Under the pieces are notes generated by a model, which worked only from the letters and a program-made list of their open reading frames with translations, was not told where the DNA came from and did no database searches. The translations under genes and the position numbers were made by a program. 24,000 nt of DNA from an uncultured Candidatus Saccharibacteria bacterium. Lineage in GTDB: Bacteria; Patescibacteriota; Minisyncoccia; Phycocordibacterales; UBA918. Of the stretch, positions 2,124 through 11,878 are shown one piece after another (position 1 is the first letter of the stretch; each line of letters starts with the position of its first letter). The DNA lies in contig CAYGOP010000010.1 of the NCBI GenBank assembly GCA_964351645.1, positions 1,775-25,774 on the forward strand, written 5' to 3'.

Positions 2124-2258
2124 ATGGCAGGAAAACCCGTGAAAGATAGAAAGCTCCTCGTTAGGAGCGTCCTTTCACGGGTTGTCGTGGGAAACTGCGG
2201 CAGGTGGGTTCGCCCATCGCCTAGCGGGGAGCTTTCTGAAGACGCGCTAGGCCTTTAA
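2124..2258 (+). CDS. Possible 44-codon basic mini-ORF (MAGKPVKDRKLLVRSVLSRVVVGNCGRWVRPSPSGELSEDALGL) embedded in the structured element
   Basis: Below the ORF-track size cutoff. GAGGTGAGG lies immediately upstream of ATG 2124. Its TAA stop (2256-2258) overlaps ATG 2258 as TAATG. It could equally be a non-coding structured RNA. Confidence 0.3.
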   Translation: MAGKPVKDRKLLVRSVLSRVVVGNCGRWVRPSPSGELSEDALGL

Positions 2259-2271
2259 TGGCCTATTTTTT
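2248..2271 (+). terminator. Rho-independent terminator spanning the mini-ORF stop and downstream ORF start junction
   Basis: taggcc (2248-2253), loop tttaat, ggccta (2260-2265), then tttttt (2266-2271). Confidence 0.55.
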
Positions 2272-2446
2272 GTATATGAAAGACAAAGATGGACGATTTG
2301 CAACGTTTCTATTTTTAATTATTACTTCTACTTATATTGTTGCTTCAGTATATCCGTTAGAGAAGGGTAACTACATTTGGCTGGGTATTTTGTGGTTCGG
2401 GTTCGGTTTTTTATTGAGTTATATATGGAGGAAGTACTGGAATTGA
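2258..2446 (+). CDS. Small two-TM membrane protein (62 aa from ATG 2258, 56 aa from ATG 2276)
   Basis: Two hydrophobic segments, FATFLFLIITSTYIVASVY and IWLGILWFGFGFLLSYIW. It lies directly downstream of the structured element and its terminator. There is no SD before either ATG. Confidence 0.45.
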   Translation: MAYFLYMKDKDGRFATFLFLIITSTYIVASVYPLEKGNYIWLGILWFGFGFLLSYIWRKYWN

Positions 2447-2458
2447 AAGCTTGACTAC

Positions 2459-3505
2459 TTATTTTCGATAACTTGGTAACTTAATCTTGAAGATATTTTT
2501 TTCGTATTGCAAACCATCTTTATTTACACTCGCTTCTTCGGGCCTTGGCTCTATTTCGATAGAGGAATTTATCATTTGTAAGGTTCTATATACCGCAAAC
2601 ATCCCTATTCCTTCACCATTAAGTCCGCTTTTTTTTGCCTGCTCGCCGCAAAATCGTTCTTGTACTATCTTCGGTATCTCCTCGGGTTTAATTTGAAGGC
2701 TAATCATTGCTATTGAGACCGCTATACAGTCACTTTCTTTTGAAAATGATATTTCAATATCGGACTCGTTTAAAGCATATTTGGTTGCATTATCAAATAT
2801 TTGGAAGAAGGCACTCTGGAATGCGCTGTAATCTATATAAACGATACCTTCAAACTCATCAACACTTACTTTGATGCCTTTATCGTGAAAATCTTGAAAA
2901 AAGTTGTGAGCAACGTTCATCAGAGCCCTTCGTAGTTGGTGTGGCTGTTTGCTCAACTTTATTTTTTTGTTGTTTAAAAGGTTTTGAAAGAGAGCAAACT
3001 CTGTCTTAATACCAGTGTTATTCTTTATGAGATTTAGGATTTTTCTATGGATGTCCTCCATCCGGCCTTTGATAATGTTCTGTATTAACAACTTCCTTTC
3101 TTCTGGTCGGGCATTCCGTAGTTGATCTTCTGGTACTAATTCAAAAAGTTCTTGGATACTGTGTCCGTTTATAGCTTCAATATTATGAATTAGTCTGTTG
3201 ACATGGACAGTATTTCTTTCGCGTTCCTCTCTGGTAGCTCTATAAATTGAAGGTATGACAAATAGTTGAGCTTGAAGTATTTCTTTAAAATAACGAGACC
3301 TGCTTACTATTTCTTGGTCTTCAGTAAGGCCGTATACTTCTCCGTGTTCTCCACTAATTTTTCCGTGGCGGATTTTTTTACCCTTAATTACTTGGGTTTC
3401 CGTCCCAGAATCAATGCTTCCATATAACGCATCGTACTCTTGGGGAAGAGTATTGTGCACAACAGTGCCCTGCTTATCTGTAATTAAAAACCACACAATT
3501 AACAA
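2459..3505 (-). CDS. Cytoplasmic histidine-kinase-like ATPase (GHKL/HATPase_c) with a divergent H-box
   Basis: N-box-like FQIFDNATKYA and G2-like GLNGEGIGMF. Candidate phospho-His in VNRLIHNIEAIN, of the H-(D/N)-x-x-N AgrC/GHKL-like type. No TM segment. The only start options are TTG 3505 or GTG 3496, and both overlap or abut the upstream TAA (3499-3501), which suggests translational coupling. Confidence 0.7.
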   Translation of the reverse strand: MLIVWFLITDKQGTVVHNTLPQEYDALYGSIDSGTETQVIKGKKIRHGKISGEHGEVYGLTEDQEIVSRSRYFKEILQAQLFVIPSIYRATREERERNTVHVNRLIHNIEAINGHSIQELFELVPEDQLRNARPEERKLLIQNIIKGRMEDIHRKILNLIKNNTGIKTEFALFQNLLNNKKIKLSKQPHQLRRALMNVAHNFFQDFHDKGIKVSVDEFEGIVYIDYSAFQSAFFQIFDNATKYALNESDIEISFSKESDCIAVSIAMISLQIKPEEIPKIVQERFCGEQAKKSGLNGEGIGMFAVYRTLQMINSSIEIEPRPEEASVNKDGLQYEKNIFKIKLPSYRK

Positions 3506-4107
3506 TAAATTTCTGCGCTATATATTTCGACCAAGTTCTCAAACTCGTATGGGTCTGCATTTTTAGGTAGTTTCGCATGGGCATTTTCCCAAATAGGGTC
3601 AAATACATCCCTTTTAGTTTGCGAAGAATAAACAACTACTTTTTTATTAGGATGCCTTTCTCTTATTGCGGCAACTAGACCCAGTCCTTGGTCTTTAGGA
3701 AACAAATTCTTCGCCACTCCGTTAATATCAATGAAGCATATGTCCGCATCAATAATATTTTGGTCGTCTATACCAGATACACGGCTAATTATTTTAGTGT
3801 TTTTCCACCCACTTTTTTTAAGGATGTTAACAACTTTAAAGTCCGTTTTGTCATCAATAAAAAGGATTTTTGTTAGACGCTTTCTCTCTTCAGGGGTGTG
3901 AGCGCAAACACTTGGCTGGGAGGCAGCATGAAGGGTTTGGATAGGAGTGAGTGGCTGTTTAATTAAGTTTAGTATTCCTTTGAATATGTACTTAAACATT
4001 CCAGTAAATTTTTCAAGAATAAACAATAGTAACGGAATTCCTATTCCACCAAATACCCATTCTTTGTTCAATTTTATCCATGCCCACGCAGCTGATATTT
4101 CATCCAT
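3499..4107 (-). CDS. Membrane-anchored protein with a C-terminal CheY-like receiver (REC) domain
   Basis: N-terminal TM segment WVFGGIGIPLLLFILEKF. REC-like strands KILFIDDK, ADICFIDING (putative acceptor Asp) and KKVVVYSSQT, then AKLPK. The ORF track starts at TTG 4143; I prefer the first ATG at 4107 (MDEISAAW...). Confidence 0.65.
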   Translation of the reverse strand: MDEISAAWAWIKLNKEWVFGGIGIPLLLFILEKFTGMFKYIFKGILNLIKQPLTPIQTLHAASQPSVCAHTPEERKRLTKILFIDDKTDFKVVNILKKSGWKNTKIISRVSGIDDQNIIDADICFIDINGVAKNLFPKDQGLGLVAAIRERHPNKKVVVYSSQTKRDVFDPIWENAHAKLPKNADPYEFENLVEIYSAEIYC

Positions 4108-4110
4108 ATA

Positions 4111-4199
4111 TTGAATGCTACTTGAATGCTTGTTGTGTGACAAGGTGCCAAGTTTCCCTTGCTGTTTTATAGTATTGTAGTTAGATAGTTCAATACTAT
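4111..4199. promoter_or_regulatory. Divergent control region between the REC gene and the recombinase gene, carrying a tandem repeat and an inverted repeat
   Basis: TTGAATGCT occurs twice, at 4111-4119 and 4122-4130, with an 11-bp period. A 9-bp inverted repeat pairs atagtattg (4169-4177) with caatactat (4191-4199). Confidence 0.35.
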
Positions 4200-4213
4200 G
4201 TTGCTCTAGTTAT

Positions 4214-5992
4214 ATGAATGTAAAAATCGAGAACCAAAAACGTGTCGCTATTTACCTTCGAGTCTCTACTGATGAACAAGTAGAGCGTCATGGCCGTGAC
4301 CTACAAGAAGCTGCCGTGCGAGCGATGATACAGTCAAAAGCAGGGTCTGATGAACCTTTTGTTTTTGCTGGAGATGAACATATTTATTTTGATGATGGTG
4401 TTAGCGGTACGATTGAGCTAGGTGAGCGTCCAGCATTTGCACGTTTAATGGAGGCTGTGACGCTAGCTCCGAAAGGGAGTAAACCTTTTGATGCGGTAGC
4501 GGTATATAAAATTGATCGCTTTGCTAGAAAACTGACTATATTGCTCGACGCAATATCATTCTTTAAAGAGTACGACATAGAGTTCATTTCAGTGAACGAA
4601 AGTATAGACACCTCCACTGCATTTGGGAGGGCTATGCTAGGTATCATAGGTGTGATAGCGGAGTTGGAACGCGACACCATCTTCGATCGTACCCAAGCAG
4701 GAAGGATACAAGCTCTTCAAAAAGGTGTGCATATGGGTAATGCATCAAAATATGGCTATATTAAAGACTCGAGTAAACGTCTCGTAATTCTTGAAGAAGA
4801 AGCCGATACAGTCCGGATGATGTTCCAAATGTTAACCAGCAATAAGATGTCTGTTTACAACATAGCCGATTTCTTAAAAGAGAATGAGCATTTAACTCCT
4901 GATGCTTCGTCAATTAAGCATCAGAAAAGAAAAGGCATAGCTAAAAATAAAAAGTCCCTTTATAACTGGCACCCAGAAGCAATTCGTAGGATGCTGCAGG
5001 ATGAAATTTACGTTGGGCGAGCATACTACAACAAGACCAAGAATGGTAAGAAGGTTCCAAAAGAAGACTGGTTTGTTCAACATGTACCACAGATAATAGA
5101 TACTATTACTTTTGACCGAGCACAAAAGATATTAAGTGAAAATAAGCATCAAAAGAAAGAGACTCCGAGCAAGCACACCTATTTGTTGAGTGGCCTACTC
5201 CGATGCGAAGCCTGCCGTGATGGAGCAAATGCAAAGCATTACATTGGGACTCCTCAAACAGTAAAGAGCACTGGTAAAAAAGTGTATTACTACAACTGCA
5301 AAGGGAAGTCTCATCTTTACAAGGAAGACCCTTGCTTAACAACCCCGCTCCCAGCTGATGCGATTGAAGATTATGTAGTAAATATCTGTAAACAGATACT
5401 GGAAAATCCAATTGATACCTTTGAGTACCAACAGAAACTCAAGTCTACACGGGTAGAAATAAAGCATTTACAAAAGGAGGAGGACCGAGTCCTAAAGCTT
5501 GTTGAAGGTATACCCGCACGGAAGGACTTACTGCGGGAGCAGCACGAGGCAGCAATTATTGATACTCCTACTATTAAGGCTAAATTTGCTGAACTAGATG
5601 AAAAAGAAAAGTCTCATAAAGAGCAACTAACGCAAATACAGTCGCGTCTATCCCAAAACACTTTGAATGAGGGTTATATTGAAACTTTTAAGTTGTTCAA
5701 TGAAAATTATAAAGAGATGCTTAAGCAGGTAAGTAAGAACCGGTTAGATATTTATGACATCATCCATACGATGATTGATGAAATTACAGTCTACTCACGG
5801 CCGGTAGAGGAGGGTGATAGTGTGGCTGGTCGGAAGAAAAAGGGGCAACAGGTCCCGTATCGTATCCATATTAAGTTCAAGCTCCCGCAAGAGATGTTGA
5901 ATGCCTTTGGTAAGCAGGAGGTAGTAATAACAGAAAATGCACCCGAGGTGGGTGCAAGTTCTAGTCAAAAAGACATTGGTGGTGCGCGATGA
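4214..5992 (+). CDS. Large serine recombinase (resolvase/invertase N-terminal domain, recombinase domain, Zn-ribbon and coiled coil)
   Basis: VAIYLRVSTDEQ contains the catalytic Ser motif. YKIDRFARK is present. A Cys cluster LLRCEACRDG...YYYNCKGK forms the Zn-ribbon. A long charged helical region spans QKLKSTRVEIKHLQKEEDRVLKL. The ORF is 592 aa. Confidence 0.9.
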   Translation: MNVKIENQKRVAIYLRVSTDEQVERHGRDLQEAAVRAMIQSKAGSDEPFVFAGDEHIYFDDGVSGTIELGERPAFARLMEAVTLAPKGSKPFDAVAVYKIDRFARKLTILLDAISFFKEYDIEFISVNESIDTSTAFGRAMLGIIGVIAELERDTIFDRTQAGRIQALQKGVHMGNASKYGYIKDSSKRLVILEEEADTVRMMFQMLTSNKMSVYNIADFLKENEHLTPDASSIKHQKRKGIAKNKKSLYNWHPEAIRRMLQDEIYVGRAYYNKTKNGKKVPKEDWFVQHVPQIIDTITFDRAQKILSENKHQKKETPSKHTYLLSGLLRCEACRDGANAKHYIGTPQTVKSTGKKVYYYNCKGKSHLYKEDPCLTTPLPADAIEDYVVNICKQILENPIDTFEYQQKLKSTRVEIKHLQKEEDRVLKLVEGIPARKDLLREQHEAAIIDTPTIKAKFAELDEKEKSHKEQLTQIQSRLSQNTLNEGYIETFKLFNENYKEMLKQVSKNRLDIYDIIHTMIDEITVYSRPVEEGDSVAGRKKKGQQVPYRIHIKFKLPQEMLNAFGKQEVVITENAPEVGASSSQKDIGGAR

Positions 5993-6055
5993 GAGACTTG
6001 AACTCCCGACCTTCTCGGTGTAAACGAGCTGCTCTACCAACTGAGCTAATCGCGC
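5980..6055 (-). tRNA. tRNA-Val (anticodon UAC), CCA encoded
   Basis: The reverse complement reads GCGCGAT-TA-GCTC-AGTTGGTA-GAGC-A-GCTCG-TTTACAC-CGAGA-AGGTC-GGGAG-TTCAAGT-CTCTC-ATCGCGC-A-CCA. This hand-folded cloverleaf has a 7-bp acceptor stem and a GTTCAAGT T-loop. Confidence 0.9.
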
Positions 6056-10288: not shown

Positions 10289-10735
10289 ATGAAAGAGAAG
10301 ACAGACAAATCATTTGGCATTATTCCAGCTCGAAAAACTCCAGCGGGCTGGGAGGTTTTACTTATCCATCAGTTCAGCAAGATTGGAAATAATTCGTACT
10401 GGGTGTTCCCAAAAGGACATGCCGAAGGGGAGGAGACTCCGCTCGAGTCAGCTACTCGAGAACTCTTTGAAGAAACTGGCTTGCGAGCAGAAAAGATTCT
10501 TCAGGCACCAACTTTCTCCCTTGGCTATACATTCATGTTTGAGAATGAGCGAATCAGCAAAACGGTAGATTTCTATGTCGGGATTATTTCAAACTTTGAA
10601 ACTACCTTAGATGCTCAGGAGGTGAAGGAGGCAGGGTGGTATTCCTTGGATGAAGCGCTCGAGCGGCTCGACTATGCGGACACCAAAAACATGTTTAAAG
10701 AGGTACAGGAATTCTTAATAACCTACCAAGGTTAA
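10289..10735 (+). CDS. NUDIX hydrolase
   Basis: Nudix box GHAEGEETPLESATRELFEETGL. The track ORF (from 10190) runs through the tRNA and terminator, so it was trimmed to ATG 10289. Confidence 0.85.
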   Translation: MKEKTDKSFGIIPARKTPAGWEVLLIHQFSKIGNNSYWVFPKGHAEGEETPLESATRELFEETGLRAEKILQAPTFSLGYTFMFENERISKTVDFYVGIISNFETTLDAQEVKEAGWYSLDEALERLDYADTKNMFKEVQEFLITYQG

Positions 10736-10766
10736 ACTAGCTTTTTATACCATTTTATGGTATAAT
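10736..10766 (+). promoter_or_regulatory. Extended -10 promoter (TGGTATAAT) with upstream ACTAGCTTTTT box
   Basis: tggtataat at 10758-10766. The same architecture recurs at 11337-11367. Confidence 0.5.
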
Positions 10767-10821
10767 ATTAAATAATATAGTCCTTTGACTTCAGTCATCA
10801 GCTCAAACACAGGAGGCCGAC

Positions 10822-11271
10822 ATGCGCGCCATTCTTGCAATTGCCCTTATTTTTCTTTCTTCTGCCGCCTGGGCCGGACCTAAGCATCCGACCTGTCAGT
10901 ACCTGTATGGGCTGACACAGCGATTGGAAGTAATCGTGAATGAACAACAGCTCCGCAATGTCAGCCACGACGTGTGGCAGTCCAAAGATGGTTGCACCTG
11001 GACCTATCGAGATTTCTCGCCAGTCGGACTGGTTGGGTTCTACGAAACGGACCAGTTCTATTTCGCAGTCGTTCGAGTGCGGTATCACGACAATCAAGCA
11101 GTTGCTTGGGTTCCCGACGAGGTGTTCCCGAAAAACCGGTTTCGGCTTGGTGTTGGGTGCGAACAAAACCCCCAACAGCTCGAAAGCCAAGGTCGTACGG
11201 TGACCATCAGCAATCCACTGCGGCGTTCAGACCGTTGGAATGAGAGCTGTGACAGGCTCTATATTCGCTAG
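10822..11271 (+). CDS. Secreted small Cys-containing protein, unknown function (paralog A)
   Basis: Signal peptide MRAILAIALIFLSSAAWA. AGGAGG SD 5 nt upstream. Followed by its own terminator. Confidence 0.65.
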   Translation: MRAILAIALIFLSSAAWAGPKHPTCQYLYGLTQRLEVIVNEQQLRNVSHDVWQSKDGCTWTYRDFSPVGLVGFYETDQFYFAVVRVRYHDNQAVAWVPDEVFPKNRFRLGVGCEQNPQQLESQGRTVTISNPLRRSDRWNESCDRLYIR

Positions 11272-11289
11272 GGAAGCGAACAGCAAACA

Positions 11290-11321
11290 AAGCCGCCGGC
11301 TTTATAACCGGCGGCTTTTCC
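11290..11321 (+). terminator. Rho-independent terminator
   Basis: A 10-bp stem pairs aagccgccgg with ccggcggctt, followed by ttcc; the T-run is short. Confidence 0.6.
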
Positions 11322-11336
11322 TATGGTCGAGGAAAG

Positions 11337-11367
11337 ACTAGCTTTTTTATAAAATATGTGGTATAGT
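11337..11367 (+). promoter_or_regulatory. Extended -10 promoter (TGGTATAGT) with upstream ACTAGCTTTTTT box
   Basis: 22 of 31 positions are identical to 10736-10766 in my ungapped hand alignment. The spacing between ACTAGC and TGGTATA is the same in both. Confidence 0.5.
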
Positions 11368-11404
11368 TTAAAGCAAAGTTCATTCAGATTAGAAAGGATA
11401 CGCC

Positions 11405-11878
11405 ATGCGTATATTCACTGCACTATTCCTTGGCGTGTTCGCTCTGACCGCCTGTTTTACCAAGCCGGCCTCAGCCGAAATCAATTTCTATCTTGTCTGT
11501 GACAAGATGTCGAGATTGGTTGAGTCGCTCGACAATATTGTCGATGTTCGGCAATCGCTGGAGCGGGATGAATCGGTCTTGGCTTCCGGCTGTCGTTGGA
11601 GTACACTCTCGGCCTACAGCTTCGAGCTGTATCCGGATTGGTGGTATCACGCTGATGCCAACAATCTCTTCTTTGACGTTGACCGCATCAAGTTGTTGGT
11701 CAATGGTCATGTGACTGAGTGGTACACCATGAGCCGTACTTCGATTATCGACGAGTTCGAGGCGCGACCAAACTTCTTGATGCGTCTGTGTCAGCGAGTC
11801 GAAGGGCGTCTTGGGTGCTGGACCAACCGGGGAAGAGTGTTCTCTCTTGATCCGCCGTGGTCAGATGATGGTTCGTAA
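11405..11878 (+). CDS. Secreted small Cys-containing protein, unknown function (paralog B)
   Basis: Signal peptide MRIFTALFLGVFALTACFTKPASA. It shares Cys spacing and a GC.W motif with paralog A (DGCTW versus SGCRW). Confidence 0.65.
   Translation: MRIFTALFLGVFALTACFTKPASAEINFYLVCDKMSRLVESLDNIVDVRQSLERDESVLASGCRWSTLSAYSFELYPDWWYHADANNLFFDVDRIKLLVNGHVTEWYTMSRTSIIDEFEARPNFLMRLCQRVEGRLGCWTNRGRVFSLDPPWSDDGS

Follow-up and report, generated by a model that had tools for sequence, protein, structure and literature searches.

Among the described anti-phage systems, Detocs uses a His-Asp phosphorelay to drive abortive infection. It consists of three proteins: the TPR sensor kinase DtcA, the buffer receiver DtcB and DtcC, in which a receiver (REC) domain is followed by an effector (Rousset et al. 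2023, bioRxiv 10.1101/2023.01.24.525353). DtcA is large, with the phospho-His at position 645, the DtcC effector is a PNP in 80% of the operons and some effectors are membrane-spanning; mutation of the His or the Asp abolishes defence, and Detocs becomes toxic once its phosphate sink is missing (bioRxiv 10.1101/2023.01.24.525353). Another validated defence system, Ambrosia, comprises five genes, with a HATPase kinase and a REC protein encoded beside restriction-modification (RM)-type genes; the REC protein has a wHTH, and a role in the transcriptional control of RM-like enzymes has been proposed for it (bioRxiv 10.1101/2025.09.30.679545). Cam1, a 206-amino-acid (aa) type III CRISPR effector of the transmembrane (TM)-CARF type, depolarises membranes (Baca et al. 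2024, PMC10808066). The phage defence candidate PDC-M43 was derived from gene cassettes inside BREX, DISARM or type I RM, and a supplementary table assigns the cassette CAS_00151 (FAM_00604>>FAM_02649) to it (Payne et al. 2024, bioRxiv 10.1101/2024.01.29.577857). In this study, two adjacent genes of the minus strand, A (positions 3499-4107; 202 aa) and B (2459-3496; 345 aa), were compared with these systems. They lie in DNA of an uncultured Candidatus Saccharibacteria bacterium, and the whole stretch of 24,000 nucleotides (nt) that was analyzed is referred to below as the window.

A scan with the PADLOC models assigned A to PDC-M43A (PDLC04646, E 5.9e-56; residues 22-211 of the 214-aa open reading frame (ORF) against profile positions 3-200 of 203) and B to PDC-M43B (PDLC04647, E 2.4e-93; residues 6-345 against positions 5-343 of 347). 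Apart from two weak matches for A (E 0.004-0.03), nothing more was found. As in the PDC-M43 cassette, the genes are adjacent, on the same strand and in the order A then B, with a gap of 2 nt. Thus, by the family's own criteria of profile match and gene order, the pair is a member of PDC-M43, and it matches the family throughout; no published domain analysis, phenotype or mechanism of this family was found. The original prediction, made from the letters of the sequence, had proposed a defensive two-component module. This agrees with the independent computational prediction, i.e. raw sequence led to the same idea that a published pipeline had reached from genome context. The same prediction regarded the pair as possibly novel, and this part has to be withdrawn, as PDC-M43 is already catalogued and the pair is not new as a candidate.

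With moderate confidence, we read the pair as a self-contained, mobile two-gene phosphorelay, most likely a defence against phages or other mobile elements, which would act by perturbing the membrane.

Protein A: a receiver domain behind a predicted membrane helix

The ORF of gene A spans positions 3499-4143 of the minus strand, and TTG 4143 is a possible start. However, ATG 4107 (MDEISAAW...) was assigned as the start codon, because 25 aligned homologues and the 202-aa gene call P0001 of the database, which is 100% identical, all begin there. The gene ends with a TAA stop at 3499-3501.

The C-terminal part of the protein (residues 72-202; 3502-3894) carries the receiver quintet D85/D86, D127, S161 and K182, which is invariant in 26 homologues. 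The segments KILFIDDK, CFIDING and VVVYSS, in which a receiver had been recognized beforehand, are all present and contain D85/D86, the acceptor D127 (codon 3727-3729) and S161, respectively. In the AlphaFold (AF2) model, based on the 26 homologues, this region has a pLDDT of 92-97 and five β strands alternating with helices, i.e. a (βα)5 fold, and the protein ends at helix α5 of the REC domain. The best PDB fold matches found with Foldseek were all receivers: CheY, PorX, NtrX and RR468 (E ~1e-5; TM score to target 0.65-0.75). Sequence profiles were less informative: the match to Pfam Response_reg was weak and sub-threshold (E 0.0088), a profile search against PDB sequences gave no match, and the fold search alone succeeded. 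The modelled fold together with the conserved quintet confirms the assignment of this part of A as a receiver domain.

The predicted membrane helix (EWVFGGIGIPLLLFILEKF) covers residues ~17-36 (4000-4059) and is helical in the AF2 model. It is preceded by an NKEW motif, and the conserved NKEWxFGGIG sequence runs into it, with G21 and G23 present in at least 90% of the sequences. The Kyte-Doolittle value KD19 of this segment is 1.58 in the window protein and 1.73 on average across the 26 homologues. A hydrophobic segment located 56-94 residues upstream of the DD motif was kept in 67 of 75 non-redundant family A proteins, and it is retained even by subfamilies with an unrelated N-terminal sequence. 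Retention in 67 members suggests that the membrane anchor is a feature of the family, and the arrangement originally proposed, with the REC domain placed behind the anchor, therefore stands. The two parts are joined by a linker (residues ~37-71; 3895-3999) that was modelled with low confidence (pLDDT <50 at residues 42-62), varies in length and sequence between homologues (alignment A1) and is Asn-rich or of low complexity in many of them. Alignment and model together show A as an apparently intact phospho-acceptor receiver tethered to a probable membrane helix.

In layout, A resembles Cam1: the proteins have 202 and 206 aa, respectively, and in both a TM helix at the N-terminus is joined by a linker to a cytosolic α/β sensor at the C-terminus, with no enzymatic domain. 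There is no sequence relationship between them, and A is an analogue by layout, not a member of the Cam1 group. The sensor of Cam1 is a CARF domain activated by the ligand cA4, whereas that of PDC-M43A is a REC domain and its proposed activation is phosphorylation. Moreover, the conserved pore-lining Asp of Cam1 has no evident counterpart in the Gly-rich helix of A. Since A has neither an enzymatic nor a DNA-binding output, but only a Gly-rich helix on a flexible linker, a helix-mediated membrane output is suggested, and the analogy with Cam1 would make this output a membrane-disrupting one.

The lack of an identifiable pore-like pattern of polar residues in A, with only the Gly-rich helix present, would also suit non-abortive exclusion, in which a kinase-controlled membrane REC protein blocks an inner-membrane component needed for entry of phage or conjugative DNA. 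So would the resemblance of its receiver fold to partner-binding single-domain receivers such as CheY, which work through partner binding. Nonetheless, this explanation is very unlikely: a conserved host membrane target is hard to imagine for a family found in more than 10 phyla (including Saccharibacteria, Bacteroidota and Pseudomonadota), and no conserved neighbour encodes such a target.

Protein B: a soluble, atypical histidine-kinase-like partner

Gene B could start with TTG 3505 or GTG 3496. Its homologues begin with MWFLI or MKYLI, which align with GTG 3496, and the NCBI call for the protein (345 aa) corresponds to this start. The stop codon of A (TAA, 3499-3501) and the start codon of B (GTG, 3494-3496) are thus separated by 2 nt, and the A/B junction occupies positions 3494-3501; this is the abutment of the two genes that had been expected. 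Among 75 non-redundant loci, the distance between the stop of A and the start of B was at most 14 nt in 74, and the genes overlapped in 43. The commonest junction is an ATGA overlap (-4; 24 of 75), a distance of -1 was found in nine loci, and the +2 of the window falls within the observed range. These tight distances indicate that translational coupling is conserved across the PDC-M43 family. No Shine-Dalgarno-like sequence is evident before gene A or B. In one locus, from a Thermodesulfobacteriota metagenome-assembled genome (MAG; L008), the deposited call for B (10882-11661) is shortened to 259 aa. An intact ORF of 352 aa at 10603-11661, overlapping A by 4 nt, is present there and the short version is therefore an annotation artefact, not a broken gene; that pair adjoins PemK/MazE and an SbcCD-like pair.

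The protein is predicted to be soluble and lacks a TM segment: its maximal KD19 is 1.15, and a value of 1.6 was reached by only one of 160 family members. Pfam HATPase_c matched the protein with E 3e-9, NCBIfam models of histidine kinases (HKs; VanS, PhoR, WalK and others) matched its C-terminal half, and Foldseek aligned it with WalK, HK853, CpxA, CusS and LOV-HK at E 1e-12 to 1e-14. In the AlphaFold model (pLDDT 79.5), a β-rich domain (2-58) is followed by long helices (67-174), and these by an α/β domain (183-341). A profile search over the whole library retrieved 415 clusters (50% identity) of B at E 1e-30 or better, and among the 150 clusters listed nearly all were full-length matches of ~345 aa.

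The N-terminal β-rich domain (residues 1-60; 3317-3496), a putative cytoplasmic sensor, is built in the AF2 model of strands 2-7, 12-15, 31-37, 40-48 and 52-58 (pLDDT 81-91). Its R43-H44-G45 is conserved in close homologues, and no Pfam family matched it. Foldseek aligned B over ~390 columns with the PAS/LOV kinases 4gcz and 8a6x, but with a root-mean-square deviation of 20-27 Å, and the domain is therefore PAS-like by position only. The DHp-like helical region that follows (residues 67-174; 2975-3298) consists of helices 67-94, 97-120 and 131-174 and contains the invariant H104 (codon 3185-3187) within RLIHNIEAINGHSIQE. Foldseek aligned 250-270 columns of B with DHp+CA chains (e.g. HK853) at E 1e-12 to 1e-14. 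In sequence-based searches, no Pfam DHp model (HisKA, HisKA_2, HisKA_3, HWE_HK and others) matched any of nine diverse B proteins at E up to 10, and hhalign of the B family against a HisKA kinase aligned only the catalytic ATP-binding (CA) domain. This GHKL-type CA domain (residues 183-341; 2474-2950) contains the N box FDNATKY, with N236 at codon 2789-2791, and the G2 box GEGIG at 2603-2617.

Conservation was counted over 160 diverse homologous sequences. H104, N236, Y240, G294 and G296 were invariant, K239 and G298 were each found in 159 sequences, and N105, the residue following H104, in 154. The H box (RLIHNIEAIN), N box (DNATKYA) and G2 box (GEGIGMF) named in the original prediction are thus all present, with the His, Asn and Gly invariant, and the H box was rightly called atypical, as it has Asn at H+1 in place of the Glu or Asp of HisKA and HisKA_3 kinases. 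What had been overlooked is the absence of the G1 box. An F-box-like segment is present (IFQEGF in the family consensus, IVQERF in the window protein), but the G1 motif DxGxG is replaced by M264-x-S266 (M264 at codon 2705-2707), both residues being found in 159 of the 160 sequences. M264 falls on the Asp of G1, which in GHKL ATPases contacts adenine, and S266 on the first Gly of the motif. Three independent alignments agree on this placement, with SrrB, YycG and CpxA compared by HMM and a generic HisKA kinase by profile.

The pair shares with classical HK/CheY systems (e.g. HK853-RR468) the predicted DHp+CA fold, the REC fold, an operon order of response regulator (RR) then HK, the invariant His, the N box, the F-box-like segment, the G2 box and the REC quintet. 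It differs from them in that B is soluble and has an unclassified β domain of ~60 aa, and in that the REC domain of A follows a helix and lacks an output domain. The replaced G1 box (MxS for DxGxG), Asn at H+1 and the lack of a Pfam DHp match set B apart from class I HKs. The B family appears to be an unclassified HK subtype.

Detocs and PDC-M43 are alike in combining a His kinase with a REC protein as a stand-alone unit that does not serve transcription control, and in conserving the His and the Asp. The proposed membership of the pair in a Detocs-like group is nevertheless ruled out by its architecture. Detocs has three genes and PDC-M43 two: B (345 aa, with a β domain of ~60 aa) gave no TPR match in Pfam, the ORFs flanking the pair in the window gave no REC match and there is no conserved third gene that could encode a buffer REC, and in A the domain order is reversed in comparison with DtcC, the helix being N-terminal and the REC domain C-terminal. 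In PADLOC, at E up to 1, models of PDC-M43B were the only ones that B matched, although the presence of Detocs models in that set is unverified. From Ambrosia, PDC-M43 differs in having no obligatory RM partners and no match to a DNA-binding domain; the claim that the pair lacks a DNA-binding output was thus borne out for both proteins in Pfam.

The departures of B from canonical kinases raise the question of whether it is mainly a kinase. The HN and MxS motifs would fit an enzyme that is mainly a phosphatase or a kinase of low rate, and the N-terminal domain matches no sensor family. The pair could thus be a dead-man switch or addiction module, in which a phospho-state of A (on or off) is maintained by B and decays upon phage shut-off or loss of the element, making A toxic. 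The tight translational coupling, which fixes the A:B ratio as in toxin-antitoxin (TA) pairs, and the location of the pair beside TA genes on plasmids and integrative elements would agree with this, as would the toxicity of Detocs once its phosphate sink is lost (bioRxiv 10.1101/2023.01.24.525353). On the other hand, the invariant N box, G2 box and His argue that B genuinely uses nucleotide and His chemistry and is more than a scaffold, and the effector-first gene order is the opposite of the usual antitoxin-first order. We consider such a switch unlikely.

For the membrane-perturbing phosphorelay that we prefer, the following course of events is proposed. B would sense an intracellular cue of infection via its small N-terminal β domain and autophosphorylate on H104, and the phosphoryl group would pass to D127 of A. 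Phosphorylated REC domains would then associate and bring the Gly-rich N-terminal helices of A together, and the clustered helices would perturb or depolarise the membrane, so that growth of the infected cell stops, as with Cam1. The kinase activity of B, the phosphotransfer, the trigger, the effect on the membrane and any phage phenotype are all features that we infer. A more far-reaching version, in which PDC-M43 is a minimal phosphorylation-gated immunity with a REC domain gating a single-helix membrane pore and an unclassified HN/MxS kinase subtype driving it, is rather doubtful; there, B may draw on another phosphodonor or serve as a switch timed by decay. If this version were true, both the effector logic of the receiver domain and the catalytic variant of the GHKL kinase fold would be new.

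Distribution and genomic contexts of the pair

The distribution of PDC-M43 was assessed with a pattern-based scan in which each of 185,579 species was represented by one genome; the 62 loci found are a lower bound. In 60 of these, B comes immediately after A on the same strand, which bears on the question of co-occurrence raised with the original prediction. The loci (designated L with a number) belong to Saccharibacteria/Patescibacteria, Pseudomonadota, Bacteroidota (most loci), Planctomycetota, Verrucomicrobiota, Campylobacterota, Fibrobacterota, Bdellovibrionota and others. The pair thus spans more than 10 phyla, with a patchy distribution, and its nearest relative in the genome collection is in a Saccharibacteria MAG (L014). 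A conserved third gene was sought among 319 neighbour proteins (three genes on each side), which fell into 303 sequence clusters; there is therefore no third component, and this candidate was rejected.

Immediate neighbours (116 across 64 loci) were pooled, and the recurrent families among those listed were type I RM specificity subunits (4), HsdR (2), serine recombinases (2) and DDE transposases (2). In at least four loci, checked with Pfam, the pair lies inside or adjoins a type I RM operon. The gene order is HsdM-Fic-HsdS-[A-B]-DUF3800-HsdR in L056 and HsdM-[A-B]-HsdS...HsdR in L073, and HsdR is located directly upstream of the pair in L058 and L022. A homologue of the latter HsdR proteins lies two genes downstream of the pair in L057 (by sequence clustering only). 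In L010, the pair adjoins a serine recombinase and RM-like helicase, methylase and DUF4145 genes.

Intact pairs were also identified on nine IMG/VR contigs. Four of these (L078-L081) are P2-like prophages whose gpA proteins (phrog_91) are 59-81% identical among themselves. In each, the pair (L078 6273-7991, L079 5265-7009, L080 5386-7079 and L081 6076-7736) is inserted between gpA and the portal gene gpQ, which is followed by the terminase, scaffold, capsid and small terminase genes. The gpA-gpQ interval of P2-like prophages, the home of old and tin, is an anti-phage hotspot (Rousset et al.). The A proteins of these prophages fall into at least two subclades (33-34% vs 45% identity to the query), which suggests separate acquisitions. 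Three plasmids bear the pair as well, i.e. Shewanella baltica pSBAL11701, where it adjoins HigB/antitoxin and H-NS genes, an Escherichia coli IncF conjugative plasmid and a Burkholderia plasmid. On the E. coli plasmid (NZ_CP148569.1, 52495-54157; L086, 7139-8801), a distant version of the pair is flanked by IS3 and Tn3, with genes for NACHT-domain and DUF3800 proteins in the vicinity.

The A-B pair thus moves between phyla as a unit and lands where defence genes accumulate. Type I RM operons, the P2 hotspot, the accessory regions of plasmids and the lack of a conserved neighbour agree with the defensive role proposed at the outset. The expectation that homologous pairs would sit in defence islands or mobile elements held for the RM operons, the P2 hotspot and the plasmids, but not for the many loci among housekeeping genes.

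Several observations weigh against a membrane-perturbing defence. (i) The immediate neighbours are heterogeneous and many are housekeeping genes, so that many loci lack a defence gene beside the pair; in L004, the pair lies between rpsI and grpE with nothing mobile nearby. (ii) No PDC-M43 pair was found in the genomes of cultured phages. (iii) The helix of the window protein A is short and borderline on the Kyte-Doolittle scale. (iv) The DHp part of the B model is of low confidence (pLDDT 52-71), and the atypical motifs of B (Met for the G1 Asp, Asn at H+1, no Pfam DHp match) could reduce or abolish autokinase activity. (v) PDC-M43 is an untested candidate, one of 145 (Payne et al. 2024, bioRxiv 10.1101/2024.01.29.577857), and it is not mentioned in the searchable literature.

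The recombinase island and the place of the pair in its family

In the window, the pair is found on a serine-recombinase island at tRNA-Val, and not inside an RM, BREX or DISARM operon. Divergent from it, on the plus strand, lies a gene for a large serine recombinase/integrase (4214-5992; Pfam Resolvase, Recombinase and Zn_ribbon_recom; phrog_95 E 7e-101), which is the mobility gene of the element. At the right edge of the island there is a tRNA-Val(TAC) gene (5980-6055, minus strand; ARAGORN), whose 3' end shares 13 nt with the end of the convergent recombinase gene and which is followed by the housekeeping genes for acylphosphatase, uppS, rluA and rplS. The GC content is 36.9% for the pair, 39.3% for the island segment and 45.0% beyond tRNA-Val, in agreement with the AT-rich island beside a serine recombinase described earlier. 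As the GC content rises from 39% to 45% across the tRNA gene, the latter is a probable integration (attachment) site; no attachment repeat of the tRNA-Val end and no left end of the island were found in the available sequence (a 13.8-kb contig).

The divergent unit of recombinase and pair, with a spacer of ~100 nt, recurs in the three closest relatives (L087 3-2558, L089 11-3568 and L090 20-3574), whose A proteins are 61-80% identical to that of the window. In L089, an FtsK/SpoIIIE gene lies downstream and overlaps the end of B. The recombinase and the A-B pair therefore seem to travel together in the closest subclade. This divergent arrangement, with a partly conserved region of 100 nt in the window and the three relatives, could point to a regulator of excision or transfer of the element, as the original prediction had offered in second place, or more generally to an ordinary accessory signalling pair with no defence role. 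The RR-then-HK order, normal for two-component operons, and the housekeeping neighbours at many loci would fit such a function. We regard it as distinctly unlikely. Neither protein gave a match to a DNA-binding or other output domain in Pfam, there is no conserved partner gene, the distribution is patchy (the 62 loci of the genome scan), and the pair recurs in RM operons and in the P2 hotspot. Furthermore, serine recombinases account for only two of the 116 immediate neighbours, among the families listed, and a link with the recombinase was rejected as the general role of the pair, although the unit is conserved in the closest subclade.

The intergenic region between gene A and the recombinase gene (4108-4213) contains two copies of the direct repeat TTGAATGCT at 4111-4130, abutting the ATG of A, and a 9-bp inverted repeat (ATAGTATTG/CAATACTAT) at 4169-4199, both exactly as first reported. 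They were considered as a conserved operator, which was ruled out. When the region was aligned with that of the three related elements, conservation was confined to AGTATTGAAC and to GTAGCAT, located 6-12 nt before the ATG of A; it did not extend to the first direct-repeat copy or to the right-hand arm of the inverted repeat, and promoter-like matches in this region were no more frequent than expected by chance.

The rest of the island has no annotation, save for genes of zeta-toxin and AAA_33-like kinases that lie a short way outside the window. There, on the left side, a 38-nt motif (core AAGTTCTAACGTCGTCCCACATCG) occurs three times, at L001 11002-11039, 12184-12221 and 12529-12566, with 76% identity among the copies, which are interspersed with island genes, those of the zeta-toxin and AAA_33-like kinases included. 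Within the window, a 269-aa ORF on the minus strand (163-972) has a CxxC pair in its N-terminal part. It matches phrog_1305 'DNA binding protein' weakly (E 3.8e-5) and gave no Pfam, PADLOC or NCBIfam match. A hydrophobic ORF of 62 aa (2258-2446, plus strand) is convergent with gene B, the 3' ends of the two lying 12 nt apart; it has a weak match to the 8xMP membrane-protein family (E 0.014) and is present in the Logan gene calls of the same contig. The only terminator-like hairpin of the region (2248-2265) overlaps the start of this ORF.

What this locus adds to PDC-M43 is a further member in an unusual host and element. Several descriptive points are absent from the literature searched: the TM-linker-REC layout seen throughout the A family, the HN and MxS motifs that mark the kinase, translational coupling as a conserved trait and the presence of the pair in the P2 hotspot. 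Nothing was found there on membrane-anchored response regulators. For annotation, the gene pair should not be labelled an ordinary two-component regulator. The invariant loss of the G1 Asp in a kinase family whose active site is otherwise intact bears on nucleotide binding by GHKL kinases. PDC-M43 occurs in Saccharibacteria-like genomes, on an E. coli IncF plasmid and in the defence hotspot of P2-like prophages, which makes it experimentally tractable. If the pair defends against phages, it would be the second kind of His-Asp phosphotransfer defence after Detocs and the simplest one, with two small proteins and no enzymatic effector, and a receiver domain would be shown to be able to act on the membrane directly.

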